Below are positions 4,888 through 45,290 of a stretch of 61,578 bases of DNA, one piece after another (the stretch's first letter is position 1; every line of letters begins with the position of its first letter). Both the position numbers and the translations under genes were made by a program. Origin of the DNA: an uncultured Clostridia bacterium (lineage in GTDB: Bacteria > Bacillota > Clostridia > TANB77 > CAG-508); contig CALXJU010000004.1 of the NCBI GenBank assembly GCA_944388705.1, positions 1 through 61,578 on the forward strand. Direction: 5' to 3'. Below the pieces are notes generated by a model. That model was not told where the DNA came from. It did no database searches and worked only from the letters and a program-made list of their open reading frames with translations.

Positions 4888-4903
4888 ATTGTCAAATTTT
4901 GAA

Positions 4904-4998
4904 GGTCTGTCCCCAAATTACCCAAAAGGAAAAAAGAGAACCGTCCCAAAATTGCCAAAAGGGAAAAAACGGGACAGGTCCCAAATTTCCCTGAAAGG
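4904..4998 (+). repeat. family A interspersed repeat, copy A1 (three tandem 32-34 bp units)
   Basis: Units are GGTCTGTCCCC-AAATTACCC-AAAAGG-AAAAAA, GAGAACCGTCCC-AAAATTGCC-AAAAGGG-AAAAAA and CGGGACAGGTCCC-AAATTTCCC-TGAAAGG. The same cores recur at 31698-31832 and 43872-43979. Confidence 0.85.
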
Positions 4999-31698: not shown

Positions 31699-31832
31699 GG
31701 AAATTTGGGGACGGTTCTCTTTTTTCCAAAAGGGAAATTTGGGGACGGTTCTTAAATTGCCAAAAAGGAAAAAAGAGAACCGTCCCCATTTTACCCAAAA
31801 GGAAAAATTGGGACAGACATTAAATTTGAAAG
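31698..31832 (+). repeat. family A repeat, copy A2 (two inverted plus two forward units) between spoVAC and spoVAD
   Basis: GGGAAATTTGGGGACGGTTCTC occurs twice, followed by GAGAACCGTCCCC and then TTGGGACAGAC...GAAAGG. The GGGGACGGTTCT/GAGAACCGTCCCC pair can form a hairpin. Confidence 0.85.
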
Positions 31833-36804: not shown

Positions 36805-36846
36805 ATTAACAAAAGCACTCCAAAGAGGACTATCCCCTTTAGAGTG
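36805..36846 (-). terminator. terminator at the end of the glycan locus (overlaps the glf stop)
   Basis: CACTCTAAAG/CTTTGGAGTG, 9 of 10 bp, then CTTTTGTT. Confidence 0.5.
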
Positions 36847-37939
36847 TTTTTGTTAAGTCTAATGCTGCTCTGATAACCTTATCCATATCATAATATTTAT
36901 AATTTCCAAGTCTGCCACCAAAAATAACATTAGGTTCTTTATCAGCTAATTCTCTATATTTTTCAAATAAAGAGTTATTTTTTTCGTCATTGACTGGATA
37001 ATAAGCTTCATCTCCCATTTTCCAATCCATTGGATATTCTTTAGTAATTATTGTACCTTTACATTTATTAAATTCAAAATGTTTATGTTCAATAATTCTA
37101 GTATATTTTTCATTATGGCTTGTATAATTAACAACTGCATTACCTTGATAATCATCAATATCTTCATATATCTCATTTTCGAATTTTAACGAACGCCATT
37201 CTAAGTTTCCAAATTTATAATCAAAATATTCATCTATCATACCAGTATATAGAATTTTATCAGCTAGGCTATTATATTTATCTTTTTCTTTTAAATAATC
37301 AACACCAAGTTCTACATCAGCATCTGCTAATAATTTTTCAATTATAACATTATATCCGCCTTCTGGAATTCCTTGATATCTGTCATTAAAATAATTGTTA
37401 TCATATATAAATCTAACAGGTAATCTTTTTATGATAAATGCTGGTAGTTCTTTACAATCTCTTCCCCATTGTTTTTCTGTATATTCTTTTACTAGTTTCA
37501 TATAAATATCTTTTCCAACTAGAGATATTGCTTGCTCTTCTAAATTTTTAGGTTCTGTTATATTATATTCAGCTTTTTGTTTTTCAATAATTTCTTTTGC
37601 TTGTGCTGGAGTTGCAATTCCCCATAATTTTGAAAATGTATTCATATTAAATGGTAAATTGTAGATTTCTCCTTTATAATTTGCAATTGGAGAATTTATG
37701 TAGTTATTAAATTCTGCAAATTGATTTACATATTCCCATACTTCTTTATCACTTGTATGGAATATATGTGCTCCATATTTGTGAACATTGATTCCATTTA
37801 TTTTTTCACAATAAATATTTCCACCTATATGATTTCTTCTATCTATTACAAGACATTTTTTCCCTTTTTTATTCATTTCATATGCAAATACTGCTCCAAA
37901 TAGACCTGCACCAACTATTAAATAATCATATTTTTTCAT
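36839..37939 (-). CDS. glf: UDP-galactopyranose mutase
   Basis: MKKYDYLIVGAGLFGAVFA FAD-binding fold; 366 aa. Confidence 0.9.
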   Translation of the reverse strand: MKKYDYLIVGAGLFGAVFAYEMNKKGKKCLVIDRRNHIGGNIYCEKINGINVHKYGAHIFHTSDKEVWEYVNQFAEFNNYINSPIANYKGEIYNLPFNMNTFSKLWGIATPAQAKEIIEKQKAEYNITEPKNLEEQAISLVGKDIYMKLVKEYTEKQWGRDCKELPAFIIKRLPVRFIYDNNYFNDRYQGIPEGGYNVIIEKLLADADVELGVDYLKEKDKYNSLADKILYTGMIDEYFDYKFGNLEWRSLKFENEIYEDIDDYQGNAVVNYTSHNEKYTRIIEHKHFEFNKCKGTIITKEYPMDWKMGDEAYYPVNDEKNNSLFEKYRELADKEPNVIFGGRLGNYKYYDMDKVIRAALDLTKTL

Positions 37940-38915: not shown

Positions 38916-39653
38916 TCATATCTTGCAAATTTTTGCATTTATTTTTACATTTTTTATTTCTTTCAGGAAATTTTCCATATCGTCATATGTAACTTCTTTA
39001 AATTCTATCAGATTTTTTTTCAGTGTTTTATATTTTGATTCTGCAAGTCTATGTAGTTTGAATATTTCAACTTGTTGTGGCTTGTACTTTTCAAGTAAGT
39101 CTAATATCCTTTTTTTATTATGTTCTTGCAACGTATATTCTTTTGTAACTGGTATTCTGAAAGTAATATTATGTTTTTGTTCAAAAAGTTTTTTAATATT
39201 TTTATAATATAATTCAATATCACCATTTAATACTTTTTTCGCTTCAGAATTATCTAAAATTTTAATATCAACTATAAATTCATCAACATATTTTAAAGCA
39301 ATTTCTAGTAAACTAGTTGGTACAAATAAAGCGGTTTCTATACAAATATTAATATTTTGCTGTTTAAGTCTTTTTAATAATGGTTCTAATTTGTCAAATT
39401 GTAATAACGGCTCTCCTCCAGAAAAAGTAACTCCTCCTCCTGATTTATAAAACTTTTCATCTTTTAAAATTTCTTTTTCTAACTCATCTAGTTCTATATC
39501 ATAACCAAATTCACCTTGAATTTCATATTTTATATTTTCAGGATTTGCACACCATGGACAGCAAATACTACAACCTTTTAAAAATACAGTAGTTCTTATT
39601 CCAGGACCATCTTGAAGCGAAAATCTTTGAATATTAGTAACTCTTACCTTCAT
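38916..39653 (-). CDS. glycyl-radical enzyme activating protein (radical SAM)
   Basis: CSICCPWCANPE (CX3CX2C) near the N-terminus; 245 aa; 20-nt overlap with the upstream GRE gene. Confidence 0.85.
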   Translation of the reverse strand: MKVRVTNIQRFSLQDGPGIRTTVFLKGCSICCPWCANPENIKYEIQGEFGYDIELDELEKEILKDEKFYKSGGGVTFSGGEPLLQFDKLEPLLKRLKQQNINICIETALFVPTSLLEIALKYVDEFIVDIKILDNSEAKKVLNGDIELYYKNIKKLFEQKHNITFRIPVTKEYTLQEHNKKRILDLLEKYKPQQVEIFKLHRLAESKYKTLKKNLIEFKEVTYDDMENFLKEIKNVKINAKICKI

Positions 39654-41655
39654 TTTTTAAAGCCCTTTCTATTAACACATTTTTATATTCTTCTGGCAAG
39701 TCATTAAAGTATGCGCTAAATCCCCAAACTCTTACTATTAAATTAGGAAATTCTTCTGGATGTTCTTTTGCTTTTATTAATGTTTCACTACTTACTACAT
39801 TCATCTGCATTTGAAAAAATCCAACATCTATACTTAATATTAAAAAATCTGTAAATTTTTCAAAATTATTTTCCATAAAACTTGGTGTTACCATGAAGTC
39901 TATAACATTACCATTAAATCTATTTCCACTATAATCTATTTTTGACGCAAATTGAATTAACTCAGTATATGGGTTTGATGTTATATCTGATGAAATGTGT
40001 ACAATAAATGCATCACCTTTTTTTCTTCCATCTAATGAAGCTTCAAAATCTTTTGATTCATCTATATATGATGGTGCACTTAGTCCAAACTTTAATTTTC
40101 CACCTATCCTATTTGTTTTATTTTCTAGCATTTCGTCTACCCATTTAGTTATCATATTTGTAATTTCTAATACTTTATCATCATCTTTTCCATATCTAAT
40201 TCCTTGGTCTTTTAGTTGAATATTTTCATTGTTTTCAAAATTATTTTTTCTCAACTCATTTAATTCACTTAATGTATATTTTTTGTCTTGAAATACAAAT
40301 TTGTTTATATTTATAATTGAATTTACTGTATTTGCAAGTGATACAGAAGTAGCCCCATAATTATTATATATTGCTCCCCCTTCTGTAACATCTATTTCGA
40401 CTTGATTACAGTGTGGTATAAATAAAGACATTACTGGATCTGTTTCAAATTTTCTTGCATCTAATTCAGCAAAAAATTCATCTATATATTTTTCTAAATA
40501 AGTTTTGTATTTTTCCATTAATTGTTCTTGATTTTTAATCTCTTCTAAGTTTTCTTTATTAAGCATTTCAGTAAATGGTTTCAAAAATACTATTGTTTTC
40601 ATATTATTTTGGTCAAATGATTTTCCTGTAATTAATGGCTCCCAACATGCTGCTGTAACATAACTATATGCATCTTTTTCATCATATCCGAAATTTATTA
40701 ATTGTGGAATTACTACTTCATCATTTGAAAATAGTGGACATCCTATTCCTGTTTTTATACATTTTACTGATGTTTCCATCAATTCTCTTGGCATATTTTT
40801 TGCAACTCTTAATAATACTTTTGGGTCTGGTAGTTGAAGTTTTTCTGTTTCTTCTATAAACATATATGTTAAATCATTGCAAAAGTATTCTCCATTAGGT
40901 TCTTTTCCTCCTAATATGATTACTTGTCCTGTGTCACCTAACAATGCATTACTTTTAAACCAAAAGTTCTCATGCAATAATTTCATAAATTCATTTATTA
41001 AGCTTCGTGCTTCTTCTTTTGTAATCTTATTTTCTTTTATATCTTTTTTATAATATTTATCTAAAATTTTGTCAAGTCTTCCTAATCCATTTAAATGATG
41101 TCCAGTCTGCCATACAATTTGATTATAAAATAATATTCTTTGTAATGCTTCTTGAAATCCATCAGCTTTTTTATTTTTTATATTTTCTAAATTATTAGCA
41201 ACTTGCTCATTTGGAGCTATTTTTTTCTCTTTTTCTATTAATTCTTCTATTCCTAATAATAGTTGTTTTTGATTTTCTTTATATTCCCCATCCTTCATGT
41301 TTTCATTTTCTTTTTGCATTTCTTCTAAACTTTTTTCTAATCCAATTTCATAATCAATTGTAGTGTTCTCAATTTCAAAATTTTTGATGTTTAAAATTTT
41401 TAATGGGTCAAGATAATATATAAATCTGTCACTATTTCTTTTTATTTTTAACTTTTGAAATATTTTTCTAATTTGCATTCCCTTTGATAGTTTTGTACTT
41501 GGCATATAAAATTTAAATATTCCTTTTAATGCAAATAAAATAGTTTTGGTCATATTTCTATATTTTCTATTATATTTATAAACTATTACTGTAAAATTTG
41601 ATAATTTCTCGCTTTTATTAATTATCTTATTAATTAATTCTATAATTTTATTCAT
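39634..41655 (-). CDS. glycyl radical enzyme (PFL-like superfamily), short form, Cys-x-Glu type active site
   Basis: C-terminal glycyl radical motif IVRVWGFSAYFNDL. Cys loop VTAACWEPLITGK resembles GCVEP of GRE eliminases. Also ILGGKEPNGEYFCNDLTY and CPLFSNDEVVIP blocks. Confidence 0.8.
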   Translation of the reverse strand: MNKIIELINKIINKSEKLSNFTVIVYKYNRKYRNMTKTILFALKGIFKFYMPSTKLSKGMQIRKIFQKLKIKRNSDRFIYYLDPLKILNIKNFEIENTTIDYEIGLEKSLEEMQKENENMKDGEYKENQKQLLLGIEELIEKEKKIAPNEQVANNLENIKNKKADGFQEALQRILFYNQIVWQTGHHLNGLGRLDKILDKYYKKDIKENKITKEEARSLINEFMKLLHENFWFKSNALLGDTGQVIILGGKEPNGEYFCNDLTYMFIEETEKLQLPDPKVLLRVAKNMPRELMETSVKCIKTGIGCPLFSNDEVVIPQLINFGYDEKDAYSYVTAACWEPLITGKSFDQNNMKTIVFLKPFTEMLNKENLEEIKNQEQLMEKYKTYLEKYIDEFFAELDARKFETDPVMSLFIPHCNQVEIDVTEGGAIYNNYGATSVSLANTVNSIININKFVFQDKKYTLSELNELRKNNFENNENIQLKDQGIRYGKDDDKVLEITNMITKWVDEMLENKTNRIGGKLKFGLSAPSYIDESKDFEASLDGRKKGDAFIVHISSDITSNPYTELIQFASKIDYSGNRFNGNVIDFMVTPSFMENNFEKFTDFLILSIDVGFFQMQMNVVSSETLIKAKEHPEEFPNLIVRVWGFSAYFNDLPEEYKNVLIERALKNEGKSY

Positions 41656-43111
41656 TCACAGTTCCCTTTCCTAGTTTATTTTTTACTGTTACGACAACTT
41701 GATTTATTATGTCATTTAAGAATTTATCTTTCAATATTAATAATATTACAAAATAAATGATTGCTCCTATTGCAATTAAAATAAATGTATTTAATATACT
41801 TGGTGATATTAGTTTAGAAATATTTAATACTATTACATACATTATTAATCCACTTATTAGATATTTTATTGATAATTTTAATACATCTAAAATTTTTATG
41901 TCTTTTCTCATATATATAAAATGTACACCTAATATTGTAAATTCTGCTAATACTGATGAAATTGCTGCTCCAACTGTTCCTATTAAATTTATTAATATAA
42001 AATTAAATATTACATTTACAATTGCACCTATTGTTACTGATATTGTGTAATTTTTTTGTTGTTTTGTTTGTATTAAATATTGAATTCCTGTTACATTATT
42101 TAGTCCTATAGCTAATAATATTGGGCTTGTTGCAATTAATAATTGTATAACTGGTTCATATCCCTCTCCATAAAACCATGGTACTAAATTGCTTGATACA
42201 GCCATTATACCTAGAGTTATAGGTATTCCTAACATCCACACTATATTAAATGCTTGCATTAAATATTTTTTTACATCTTCTTTTTTATTTTCTGCAAATG
42301 CATTTGCTATTCTTGAATTCATTACTGTTCCTAATGCCGTTACTACTAACATTGCTGTTTTTACTATTTTTTGAGCTTGCTCATAAAACCCTACATCTGA
42401 CATATTATTAGTAATGTTTCCTATCATAGTTTTATCTAATACTACATATATTTGTGTTGCAATTTGTGGTACAAATAATGATAATACTGGTTTTATATGT
42501 TTTTTAAATTCTAATGTTTTTAATGATATTTTTTGCAACATTTTTGGTAAATATAACCACATTGTTGCATTTCCTAATGCATTTGCTAATACATATATCA
42601 ACATGTATTTCCATAAATCTGCTTGTGTTTTTACAAATACAAATATACATACTAAACTTAAGATTTTTACTACTAAGTTTCTTATTACAGTTTTGCCAAA
42701 ATCTTCAATTCCTTGATAATACCAACTTATATCAAGTGCATTTGCTAATAATTCTAATAATAAGATTGTATAATATGTTGTATATTGTCCTCTTATACAA
42801 AATGTTATATAAAATGTTACTGATGCTATAGTTAGTGTTATAAATCTTGTTATTACAATCTCCCAAAATGTTTTACTTTGTTTTGTTTGATTATTTTGAA
42901 CATATGCTATTTCTCTTTGTCCATACATTGCAATCCCTAGTGTTCCAAATAAAACAAAATATGTTACTATTGATAATGTATAACCATATATCCCAATGTT
43001 TTCTGCTCCTAATACTCTTGATAAATATGGTGTTGTTATTAATGGTAATACAATTGTTAACATCTGATATATTAAGTTATATATGTAATTTTTTGCTATG
43101 CTTTTTTTCAC
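41648..43111 (-). CDS. wzx: Wzx-type oligosaccharide flippase (MOP superfamily)
   Basis: 487 aa with about 12-14 TM segments and a typical polysaccharide-biosynthesis-protein N-terminus; GTG start. Confidence 0.75.
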   Translation of the reverse strand: MKKSIAKNYIYNLIYQMLTIVLPLITTPYLSRVLGAENIGIYGYTLSIVTYFVLFGTLGIAMYGQREIAYVQNNQTKQSKTFWEIVITRFITLTIASVTFYITFCIRGQYTTYYTILLLELLANALDISWYYQGIEDFGKTVIRNLVVKILSLVCIFVFVKTQADLWKYMLIYVLANALGNATMWLYLPKMLQKISLKTLEFKKHIKPVLSLFVPQIATQIYVVLDKTMIGNITNNMSDVGFYEQAQKIVKTAMLVVTALGTVMNSRIANAFAENKKEDVKKYLMQAFNIVWMLGIPITLGIMAVSSNLVPWFYGEGYEPVIQLLIATSPILLAIGLNNVTGIQYLIQTKQQKNYTISVTIGAIVNVIFNFILINLIGTVGAAISSVLAEFTILGVHFIYMRKDIKILDVLKLSIKYLISGLIMYVIVLNISKLISPSILNTFILIAIGAIIYFVILLILKDKFLNDIINQVVVTVKNKLGKGTVNE

Positions 43112-43133: not shown

Positions 43134-45158
43134 TTATCTTACAAGTACTTTTTGTATTGTTCTAATTGCAATTTGTGGTAATACTTTTTGTTCTGTATTA
43201 TATACTGGCATTTCTTTTATTTTTAAATGATTATTTTTTTCAAGCCATACACTTAATAATCTTTCTGATAAAAATCCAAATATTCTTTTATCATAATCTG
43301 TATATTTTGAAATATCTACTCTTTTTTCTAATTCAAATAAAATGTCAAATAACCATTTATAGTATTCATCAAATATTTCTTTTCGAGAAATAAACATATT
43401 GTATAAATATAATTTTCTTCCATTTGCAATTTTATCAAATGCTTCTATATATTCTGGATGTTTTTCTTGTATAATTTCTCTACATTTTTCAAAATCTTCT
43501 ATATGATGAAATTTCCCATATGCATTTTTTACAGTATATTTCACAATTCTTTCTTTTTCTGGTAGTATTATATCATATTTTTCTAATATTTCTTCTATAT
43601 CTTTTTTATTTAATATATTTTCTTTGCTATTATTGTTTTTCTTTTTAAAGAAATATCTTCTATAATGTGTAAGCCCTGTAATATCTGATTTGTCATTTTT
43701 CCATATCCAATATGCTGCTGTTAATTCACAAAAGTTTGGATTTTTTTCTGCTATATTGTCACCTGTGTTATCACGTACTTTTGTGAAACTTTCTTTTTTC
43801 CCTACTTGTATTGGTGTATATATTTCTTCTTTTGGAAATTCTGCTTCTTTGTGTGATACTATGTAAACTTTGGAAAAAAAGGGGACGGTTCTCTTTTTTC
43901 CCTTTTGGCAAATTGGGGACGGTTCTCTTTTTTCCTTTTGGGCAAAAAGAGAACCGTCCCCTTTTTTCCCTTTTTGCTCATATAGTTTTATATATTCTTG
44001 AAATTTTAATCTTTTATCATATTTTTTAGATGCTTGCAAACATTGTTCTGTTTTTTTAGGTTTGCCTTTTAAATCTTTAACAATTTTTAACACAGAGTCT
44101 ACATCTCCTTGTTCTACAACAAATCCCCATTCTTTATCAACACTTTCTACACTTCCACCTGTTTTATATGTAATTATTGGTGTTCCACATGCTATTGATT
44201 CTAAATTTGTTGTTGGAAAGTTTTCTTCATATGTAGGATTGAAAAATATATCTGCAGTTGTATAAAGTTCTGCTAATTGTTCAATATTTTCTGTTCTTGA
44301 TATTCCTATTATATTTTTAGGTAATTTTTTTAATTGTCTTTTATTCAAACCTACTAATACTATTTGGAAATCATCACTTAGTTTTTCTGATAATCTTATA
44401 AATGATTCTAATCCTTTTCTTTTTTCCCAAACACTTGCAACTCCAAGTATTATAAATTTATTTTCAATATTATGTTTTTTTCTGAAATCTCCTTTTGTTG
44501 GTTTGAAGTTTTGAAGATTTATTCCATTGTTTATTACAACTACTTCTTTATCTTTTAAATATGATTGTTTTACTAAATCTGCTAACCATTGTGATGGTGT
44601 TACTAATGTTAAGTTTTTTATATTATTAAATAATCTTTTTTTCTTTTCATAATTTATTTTTGAGTTATCAAATATTAAACTTGGTGGATATGTTGTTTTT
44701 TGTGGACATTTTTCACATCCTGTTTTCCATTTATCACATTTTGCATAATCAAAATATGTGCAATGTCCTGTTATTGCCCAACAATTATGCATTGTGTAAA
44801 TTACAGGTTTATCTATTTTTGCTAAATATTCTAATAGTACTTCTATATTTATATAATATCCTAATAAACTATGTAATTGTATTATATCTGGGTCATATTC
44901 TTCTATTTTTTTGATTAGTTTTTTTGTTGCATGTGTTGATAAAAAAGCACTATTATCAAATATCATAGATATTCCTATGTGAAATAAGTTATTTATTTTT
45001 CCACATATTTTTATTGTTTTTACACCTTCTGGTGCTCCTCTTCTTCCATATGCAATTATTCCTTCATGTCCATTTTCTTCTAATACATTATATAAGTCTA
45101 CTGCTATTTTTCCAGTACTACAATTTCCACATACTGCATTTATTTGTAAAACTTTCAT
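43134..45158 (-). CDS. bifunctional glycosyltransferase: GT4 domain fused to a DUF4422 domain through a repeat-encoded linker
   Basis: MKVLQINAV... GT4 (about 400 aa, ENFPTTNLESIACGTPIITY), linker KGKKGDGSLFAQKEKREPSPICQKGKKRTVPFFS, then a DUF4422-like domain (VYIVSHKEAEFPKEEIYTPIQVG). Start at ATG 45158 behind AAAGGAGAAG. Confidence 0.75.
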   Translation of the reverse strand: MKVLQINAVCGNCSTGKIAVDLYNVLEENGHEGIIAYGRRGAPEGVKTIKICGKINNLFHIGISMIFDNSAFLSTHATKKLIKKIEEYDPDIIQLHSLLGYYINIEVLLEYLAKIDKPVIYTMHNCWAITGHCTYFDYAKCDKWKTGCEKCPQKTTYPPSLIFDNSKINYEKKKRLFNNIKNLTLVTPSQWLADLVKQSYLKDKEVVVINNGINLQNFKPTKGDFRKKHNIENKFIILGVASVWEKRKGLESFIRLSEKLSDDFQIVLVGLNKRQLKKLPKNIIGISRTENIEQLAELYTTADIFFNPTYEENFPTTNLESIACGTPIITYKTGGSVESVDKEWGFVVEQGDVDSVLKIVKDLKGKPKKTEQCLQASKKYDKRLKFQEYIKLYEQKGKKGDGSLFAQKEKREPSPICQKGKKRTVPFFSKVYIVSHKEAEFPKEEIYTPIQVGKKESFTKVRDNTGDNIAEKNPNFCELTAAYWIWKNDKSDITGLTHYRRYFFKKKNNNSKENILNKKDIEEILEKYDIILPEKERIVKYTVKNAYGKFHHIEDFEKCREIIQEKHPEYIEAFDKIANGRKLYLYNMFISRKEIFDEYYKWLFDILFELEKRVDISKYTDYDKRIFGFLSERLLSVWLEKNNHLKIKEMPVYNTEQKVLPQIAIRTIQKVLVR
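43872..43979 (-). repeat. family A repeat, copy A3, lying inside the coding sequence
   Basis: GGGGACGGTTCTCTTTTTTCC occurs twice, followed by GAGAACCGTCCCC on the plus strand. The units match A1 and A2. Confidence 0.85.
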
Positions 45159-45186
45159 ATCTTCTCCTTTTTTTATGTTTATACTT

Positions 45187-45277
45187 GTATTTATATATAT
45201 TACTATTGAATAAGCAAAGACCCCCGACGAAGACCCCAAATATGTTTTTGCTATGAAATAGTAATATATATAAATAC
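45187..45277. repeat. family B palindromic element, copy B2
   Basis: Perfect 20-bp arms GTATTTATATATATTACTAT/ATAGTAATATATATAAATAC. Inner stem AGCAAA/TTTGCT. Loop GACCCCCGACGAAGACCCCAAATATGTT. Confidence 0.85.
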
Positions 45278-45290
45278 ATAAAAATATAAA

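Follow-up and report, generated by a model that had tools for sequence, protein, structure and literature searches.

Introduction

Read-through of a short in-frame spacer is a general route to bacterial multidomain enzymes. Here we describe a gene fusion in which the junction between two glycosyltransferase (GT) domains is occupied by a palindromic repeat array. The gene encodes a GT4 domain followed by a DUF4422 domain and lies in a 61,578-nucleotide (nt) stretch of DNA from an uncultured gut Clostridia bacterium of ~26% GC (GenBank assembly GCA_944388705.1, contig CALXJU010000004.1, positions 1 to 61,578; hereafter the window). The closest described repeats are the repetitive extragenic palindromic (REP) sequences, bacterial interspersed mosaic elements (BIMEs) and REP doublets forming hairpins (REPINs), which are paired with REP-associated tyrosine transposases (RAYTs) in Escherichia coli and Pseudomonas (PMC3116915, PMC3337134, PMC5581495). 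Palindromic repeats that lie in frame within open reading frames (ORFs) are also known, namely Rickettsia palindromic elements (RPEs) and intragenic miniature inverted-repeat transposable elements such as ERIC and BOX (PMC10969869). For the enzyme, the nearest counterpart is WbbM of Klebsiella pneumoniae O2a (PDB 6U4B; Clarke et al. 2020), which holds the founding GT111 UDP-galactofuranosyltransferase domain according to the account given in PMC12269835.

An earlier reading of the window, made without database searches (the sequence-only reading), had proposed that a repeat inserted at a gene junction removed the stop and start signals and thereby created a bifunctional enzyme. We find that the array is a REP array, that it is very probably translated, as judged from the selection acting on the codons downstream of it, and, from a comparison of orthologous junctions, that it probably did not create the fusion in which it now lies.

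Results

A REP array lies in frame between two glycosyltransferase domains

The fusion ORF starts with an ATG at position 45158 on the minus strand and continues for 674 codons without interruption (Table 1). Its first part belongs to GT4: Pfam GT4 families together span residues 18-379, with PF13439 scoring 41.7 bits (cut-off 28.5) and PF00534 scoring 76.1 bits (cut-off 26.4), and stand-alone GT4 homologues of ~400 amino acids (aa) stop where this part ends. In the second part, PF14393 matches residues 430-642 (E = 6e-86, 288 bits, profile positions 1-219 of 220), and the same region matches residues 30-280 of WbbM (6U4B; E = 1.1e-38). These two matches, together with a glf gene in the locus, place the part among the GT111/DUF4422 UDP-galactofuranose (UDP-Galf) transferases; it is a putative UDP-Galf transferase, with galactofuranosyltransferase activity predicted from homology. 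We searched codons 375-520 of the fusion ORF for an in-frame ATG, GTG or TTG and found none, while stand-alone DUF4422 homologues have their own Met 1-7 codons ahead of a conserved I-Y-V-x-x-H-K strand. The sequence-only reading had made both points, that such proteins normally start here and that this one cannot, and both hold. At 90% identity the exact window protein clusters with 48 others, all 49 coming from independent assemblies; those listed at full length measure 663, 667, 670 and 674 aa. Hence, the fusion is not an assembly accident of the window, and an assembly artefact is ruled out as its cause.

The 34-residue linker between the two domains, KGKKGDGSLFAQKEKREPSPICQKGKKRTVPFFSK, is encoded by three copies of the repeat with a 34-nt period (43869-43909, 43903-43943 and 43937-43977). 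On the plus strand two of the units carry GGGGACGGTTCTC and the third is inverted; the coding strand accordingly reads GGGGACGGTTCTC (GDGSL), GAGAACCGTCCCC (REPSP) and GAGAACCGTCCCC (KRTVP), each unit in a different frame. Each unit is an imperfect palindrome of ~31 nt (GGGAAAAAAGGGGAC-N-GTYCYCWWWTTKCCC), and all six frames of the array are free of stop codons. The ORF, the Pfam boundaries and repeat detection thus agree with the earlier proposal of an in-frame repeat that forms the interdomain linker.

At the RNA level, the sense strand of the array forms a hairpin of -51.5 kcal/mol (z = -8.2), followed by a U-run; the REP hairpins that were folded are strong, with z from -6 to -9. A simple terminator scan did not flag the array because it permits loops of just 3-8 nt. 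Matches to Rfam were all to sub-threshold microRNA or other hairpin models, a generic hairpin likeness, and membership in an Rfam family was rejected. At the protein level, an AlphaFold2 model places the GT4 C-terminal helix at residues 382-399, a coil with a predicted local distance difference test (pLDDT) score below 50 at residues 401-424, and the DUF4422 domain at pLDDT 94-98. The model was run from an alignment (A4) that is shallow over the GT4 half, hence confidence there is moderate; an alternative alignment (A3) of GT4-only and DUF4422-only homologues was discarded, as its GT4-only sequences were stretched over the whole query. The linker is predicted to be a disordered, Lys/Gly/Pro-rich segment exactly between the last GT4 helix and the first DUF4422 strand.

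Assignment of the repeat to a REP-RAYT system

A 13-mer core of the repeat occurs seven times in the window at two mismatches or fewer, against 0.07 occurrences expected by chance. The copies form three clusters, two of which are intergenic, in line with the intergenic repeat of the sequence-only reading. In a scan of one genome per species, the extended core AAAAGAGAACCGTCCCC was found in Clostridia, Omnitrophota, Aminicenantes, Saccharibacteria and other members of the candidate phyla radiation, Actinobacteria and one archaeal metagenome-assembled genome (MAG). The core often occurs as close inverted pairs, and many contigs of related MAGs carry copies.

At several loci, inverted REP copies bound elements of ~740 nt that code for a Y1/HUH protein of ~210 aa, and these proteins match PF01797 and NCBIfam NF047646, the REP-associated tyrosine transposase. 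With a profile of the REP-flanked transposases we fetched 80 RAYT loci. Of these, 52 contain a perfect match to the 10-mer GGGACGGTTC, where ~0.5 chance occurrences would be expected over all loci; the 10-mer typically lies ~70 nt upstream of the RAYT gene, with its reverse complement downstream. Low-GC Clostridia are represented as well: MAG contigs of 25-28% GC have a RAYT gene beside the same REP, on both sides in L337 and L357 and upstream in L322, a locus that ends thereafter. REP and RAYT co-occur elsewhere in a single MAG, PHEV01 (REP in L067, L079 and L084; RAYT in L294). The family thus has short palindromes, dispersed and mostly extragenic copies, and inverted flanking of a RAYT gene. 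These sequence features identify the repeat as a REP array that belongs to a RAYT (Y1/HUH tyrosine transposase) system.

The core GGGGACGGTTCTC is base-identical across distant phyla and at least one archaeal MAG (for example L071 4950-5104, L074 370-1101, L156 5102-5853 and L337 748-1708, among loci L063-L179 and L300 onwards), and it travels with the RAYT-type gene that it flanks in inverted orientation. A literature search with the core sequence returned unrelated C. elegans papers alone. In a survey of 98 REP sites, just two fell credibly within long ORFs, namely the window site and one in an Omnitrophota protein. The latter is a 690-aa ORF with two GT9 (heptosyltransferase) domains in a Candidatus Omnitrophota MAG (JAUYDL010000052, L146 4881-6953, minus strand), where the domains are joined by an in-frame REP doublet, ...ANKGDGSLYQGIEHEKRTVPGIL..., translated KGDGSL...EKRTVP.

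Orthologous junctions are separate, fused without REP, or fused with one to three REP units

Orthologous loci share the same synteny whether fused or unfused, and their junctions occur in several states. In the unfused loci L057 and L212, the GT4 stop is followed by a spacer of 24 or 33 nt and an ATG-initiated DUF4422 gene, all in one frame. This supports two adjacent genes as the ancestral state, as had been proposed; neither of these two junctions, both read at the DNA level, has a REP in its spacer. Meanwhile, a REP-free fusion is present in L003 and L005, which belong to a 15-protein cluster. Their linker is EDKMKEKQEKNENVT, and its DNA aligns to the spacer and start region of L057, with CAA in place of TAA and a short stretch deleted. 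Orthologues without the repeat are therefore already fused by an unrelated linker, a result on which the sequence-only reading had staked its account of the fusion.

The remaining fused loci carry one REP unit (L213, with a single REP half, GAACCGTCCCC; degenerate in L002), two units (L215, L216, L001 and L004, core GGGGACWGTCCC(C)) or three units (the window and L214, core GGGGACGGTTCTC). The REP of each REP-bearing lineage occupies precisely the former place of the stop, spacer and start. Set side by side, occupied and empty junctions show no visible target-site duplication of the kind that classical miniature inverted-repeat transposable elements leave, although deletions have reshaped the array borders. 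The ENV... stretch of the L002 linker resembles ENVT in the L003 linker; homology between the two was ruled out, as alignment with L213 and L212 identifies the L002 stretch as GT4 tail.

Last, L297 and L298 are frameshifted and equal L215 minus exactly one 34-nt unit. These two separate assembly records (L298 100-200, L297 1-90) are 99% identical to the window DUF4422 part. ORF calling splits their GT4 from DUF4422, whose sole remaining start is a GTG that lacks a Shine-Dalgarno sequence. The unit length of 34 nt is 1 mod 3, so that one unit more or fewer disrupts the fusion, as seen in this allele. The allele may reflect genuine fission or an off state, or it may result from tandem-repeat collapse in low-coverage assemblies.

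Scanning metagenome contigs with the DUF4422 part gave best matches of at most 62% identity and no further junction states. A stand-alone DUF4422 that is 96% identical (L299, P0157) was not used, as it stands on a 1.5-kb scaffold that is probably chimeric; within L299 1-240 the upstream composition differs, and the join falls at codon ~10 of the called DUF4422 gene. Outside the orthologous set, an unrelated Bacilli MAG (L009 5419-7290) has an independent GT4-DUF4422 fusion with a short non-repeat linker. A Wzy_C-DUF4422 fusion occurs in another MAG (L018 5041-6741).

The reading frame is maintained while the array turns over

Inside the REP-bearing clade, the ratio of nonsynonymous to synonymous substitution rates (dN/dS) is 0.05-0.07 for GT4 and 0.09-0.19 for DUF4422, the latter at dS 0.14-0.30. 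That DUF4422 has no start of its own and is nevertheless under purifying selection implies translation across the array, and we conclude that the array is very probably translated. In addition, the frame is kept in all seven fused junction lengths among the junctions whose DNA was read (81-147 nt, each a multiple of 3).

The array itself is far less stable. Between the window and L215 the GT4 DNA is 99.6% identical, and the former has three GGGGACGGTTCTC-type units against two GGGGACTGTCCC-type units in the latter; the three-unit allele is found in both subclades of cluster 1. Near-identical genes with different arrays imply that turnover is far quicker for the array than for the fusion, and that the present copy cannot be the founding event. 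A second comparison, of the window with L214 (11180-11290), reveals compensatory double changes in the outer hairpin arms (AAAAAA/TTTTTT against AAAATT/AATTTT). The hairpin stays perfect while the peptide is altered (KKGD to KIGD, PFFSK to PNFPK), which suggests that the constraint lies on the palindrome and the reading frame and not on the linker sequence.

The fusion gene lies in a surface-polysaccharide locus

The gene immediately downstream of the fusion gene encodes a Wzx-type flippase, and orthologous loci share this arrangement whether they are fused or unfused. Further genes on the same strand encode GT2 and DUF2142 proteins, a glycyl-radical enzyme with its activase, and Glf, which would supply the UDP-Galf donor expected for a GT111-type domain. 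From this gene content, the locus is a candidate Galf-containing surface-polysaccharide locus, and the fusion is a predicted bifunctional glycosyltransferase.

The glycyl-radical enzyme (pyruvate formate-lyase-like, 673 aa) and its radical-SAM activase occupy 38916-41655, between the flippase gene and glf, and are conserved in those fused and unfused loci whose DNA reaches that far (L001, L057, L213, L214, L215 and L216). A second, unrelated palindrome lies at 45186-45278, in the 133-nt spacer upstream of the fusion start. It has the core AAGACCCCCGACGAAGACCCC and arms of 27 nt that are 93% complementary, and a related copy is found near ~21534. The spacer upstream of the fusion gene is similarly long in L215 and L216 and measures only 9 nt in L214, so that this palindrome is an insertion polymorphism.

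Table 1. Positions of the fusion gene, its parts, the other REP clusters and two neighbouring genes in the window
Feature	Position	Strand	Evidence
GT4-linker-DUF4422 (GT111-like) fusion glycosyltransferase (predicted), single 674-aa ORF	43134..45158	-	ORF list, Pfam, identical public protein
GT4 (GT-B fold) domain, residues 1-395, last helix ...EYIKLYEQ	43974..45158	-	PF13439 18-216, PF00534 224-379
REP array, very probably translated as linker, residues 396-429, three 34-nt units	43872..43973	-	Repeat and inverted-repeat detection
DUF4422/GT111-like domain, residues 430-674 and stop codon, without own start	43134..43871	-	PF14393
Intergenic REP cluster, two direct, one inverted and one degenerate unit	31700..31820	.	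ORFs end 31698, start 31844
Intergenic REP cluster, variant cores GAGAACCGTCCC, GGGACAGGTCCC, GTCTGTCCCC, upstream of gene starting 5007	4900..4990	.	Repeat detection
glf, UDP-galactopyranose mutase	36839..37939	-	PF03275, E = 7e-82
Wzx-type polysaccharide flippase, immediately downstream of fusion gene	41648..43111	-	PF01943

Discussion

The array is probably a later arrival at an existing fusion

We favour, if not by a wide measure of confidence, a reading in which the fusion itself is independent of REP and the array is a fast-evolving passenger that an unconstrained junction tolerates. In the ancestral state GT4 and DUF4422 would have been two adjacent genes. The fusion most likely arose by read-through of the short in-frame spacer, as in the repeat-free orthologues, and a REP array would then have colonised the junction and erased what was left of the spacer. 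Since then, the array would have turned over rapidly, through one, two and three units and two core types. We suggest that the junction tolerates REP because its amino acid sequence is unconstrained and selection acts just on the reading frame, while the palindrome itself may be maintained at the DNA or RNA level. The ribosome would read through the REP hairpin to yield one polypeptide of ~78 kDa.

Several observations weigh against this reading. First, the GT4 tree (neighbour joining with Jukes-Cantor distances, 300 bootstraps, support counted on unrooted splits) in no case recovers the fused alleles as a monophyletic group, and in it the unfused L212 joins the fused one-REP pair L213/L002 at 95% bootstrap. 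This pattern fits several independent fusions, two of them with a REP at the junction. Second, REP-bearing linkers hold no recognisable remnant of a spacer-derived linker, and cluster 1 yielded no allele that is fused but lacks a REP. Third, a search of the 61 kb of the window, the part of this genome that could be covered, revealed no RAYT gene, and translation across a hairpin of -51 kcal/mol is an inference.

How these points are judged depends on the number of fusions. If there was a single fusion, the ancestor had an L003-like, spacer-derived linker and REP is secondary. If there were several, two of three have a REP in place of the stop, spacer and start, and REP could be causal. In the latter case a REP or REPIN would have inserted into the GT4-DUF4422 spacer, and deletions at its borders would have removed the stop, the ribosome-binding site and the start, welding the two genes into a single ORF in an ancestor of this lineage. 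Such a course of events is possible, though we consider it clearly the less probable one. It would start from two ancestral genes of the same order and synteny, with REP-free spacers at both unfused junctions whose DNA was read, and a sequence without a stop in any of six frames is suited to it. The array of both REP-bearing lineages runs from the position of the former stop to a point 0-3 codons short of the first strand of DUF4422. The grouping of L212 with L213/L002 and the REP doublet that likewise joins two GT9 domains in the Omnitrophota MAG also speak for it. Against it, L003/L005 are fused without a repeat by a spacer-like linker, and the L009 fusion is repeat-free as well. At least two further frame-preserving deletions would be needed besides the insertion, and the exchange of arrays among near-identical genes means that the copy seen today was not the founding one.

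A further point against it is the deep phylogeny. Five lineages radiate almost star-like, at dS 0.5-0.75, and the DUF4422 half disagrees with the GT4 tree on the grouping of L212. Between L212 and L213, dS is 0.55 and 0.86 for the two halves, and this inequality suggests recombination near the junction. With both sides weighed, we place REP after the fusion with modest confidence. As an account of the fusion itself, the proposal that a bifunctional enzyme arose through repeat exonisation is unproven and more likely wrong than right.

A bolder idea extends the causal role of REP beyond this locus. RAYT-type REPs that are open in six frames might serve as ready-made linkers that repeatedly weld genes (two GT4-DUF4422 lineages and the Omnitrophota GT9-GT9 protein), with the 34-nt unit switching the fusion. 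We hold this idea tentatively, and with somewhat less credence than an insertion that welded this one gene pair.

It is unlikely that the array acts as a contingency switch, akin to phase variation, in which gain or loss of a unit would couple or uncouple the Galf-transferase domain and alter the surface polysaccharide. The unit length of 1 mod 3, the exact one-unit difference between the frameshifted L297/L298 and L215, and the position of the gene within a surface-polysaccharide locus are what such a switch would call for. However, one such allele was found, in three sequences against 49 in the fused cluster, and collapse of a perfect tandem repeat at ~5x assembly coverage could yield L297/L298. 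Alleles of different unit number also differ at their borders, which is not simple slippage. Very improbable is the proposal that the fusion ORF does not make one protein, the hairpin terminating transcription or blocking ribosomes and DUF4422 being silent or using a non-canonical start: the hairpin is very stable and followed by a U-run, but DUF4422 is under strong purifying selection in the REP-bearing clade, the frame is preserved at every fused junction length, the site goes unflagged in the simple terminator scan, and there is no in-frame start.

Implications

With the array read as a passenger, these junctions offer several lessons. A single gene junction presents an unusually complete natural series that comprises separate genes, a repeat-free fusion, a frameshifted allele, and fusions holding one, two or three REP units. 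RAYT-class REPs, by definition extragenic elements, can reside within an essential frame, and very probably be translated there, when the site is an unconstrained interdomain junction; such arrays evolve much faster than the host gene. For annotation, Lys/Gly/Pro-rich linkers of the KGKKGDGSL, EKREPSP or KRTVP type are repeat-derived, and assembly collapse of a repeat unit can mimic gene fission. The pairing of a cross-phylum REP core with RAYTs provides a handle on REP-RAYT recognition outside Proteobacteria. The findings do not show that repeats create new bifunctional enzymes; that an inserted repeat created this fusion is not established, given the repeat-free fusions in L003/L005 and L009 and the replacement of arrays between genes that are 99.6% identical.

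Comparison with known systems

Fusion by spacer read-through appears to be realised in L003 and L005, whose linker aligns to the ancestral spacer and start region. The window allele differs in that it has a REP array in place of any recognisable spacer remnant. Within what PMC12269835 reports of it, WbbM resembles the window enzyme as a bifunctional polysaccharide glycosyltransferase in which a DUF4422/GT111 domain is fused to a second GT domain and a UDP-Galp mutase takes part in the pathway. The GT111 domain of WbbM is N-terminal and precedes GT8, and its linker is not repeat-derived, whereas the window enzyme, known from its sequence, has GT4 at the N terminus followed by GT111.

The repeat family resembles REP-RAYT systems in its short imperfect palindromes, which occur singly, as inverted doublets or in clusters and are dispersed and mostly intergenic, and in the inverted flanking of a single Y1/HUH transposase gene by the same sequence. 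It differs in that the window core GGGGACGGTTCTC is distinct and shared over many phyla, with low-GC gut Clostridia and candidate phyla as hosts. In addition, the window copy lies inside a coding region and is very probably translated, whereas REPs are extragenic by definition, and the window has no cognate RAYT within its 61 kb.

RPEs share with the array that dispersed palindromes lie in frame in ORFs and add a peptide segment that the fold tolerates, a likeness of outcome alone. RPEs are ~150 bp long, belong to another family with no known transposase, and usually lie within single-domain proteins of Rickettsia. The array in the window, by comparison, has a 34-nt period, sits at the junction of two catalytic domains in a Clostridia host, and comprises 0 to 3 units depending on the allele. 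It is a new and unusually well-documented example of in-frame palindromic repeats in ORFs.

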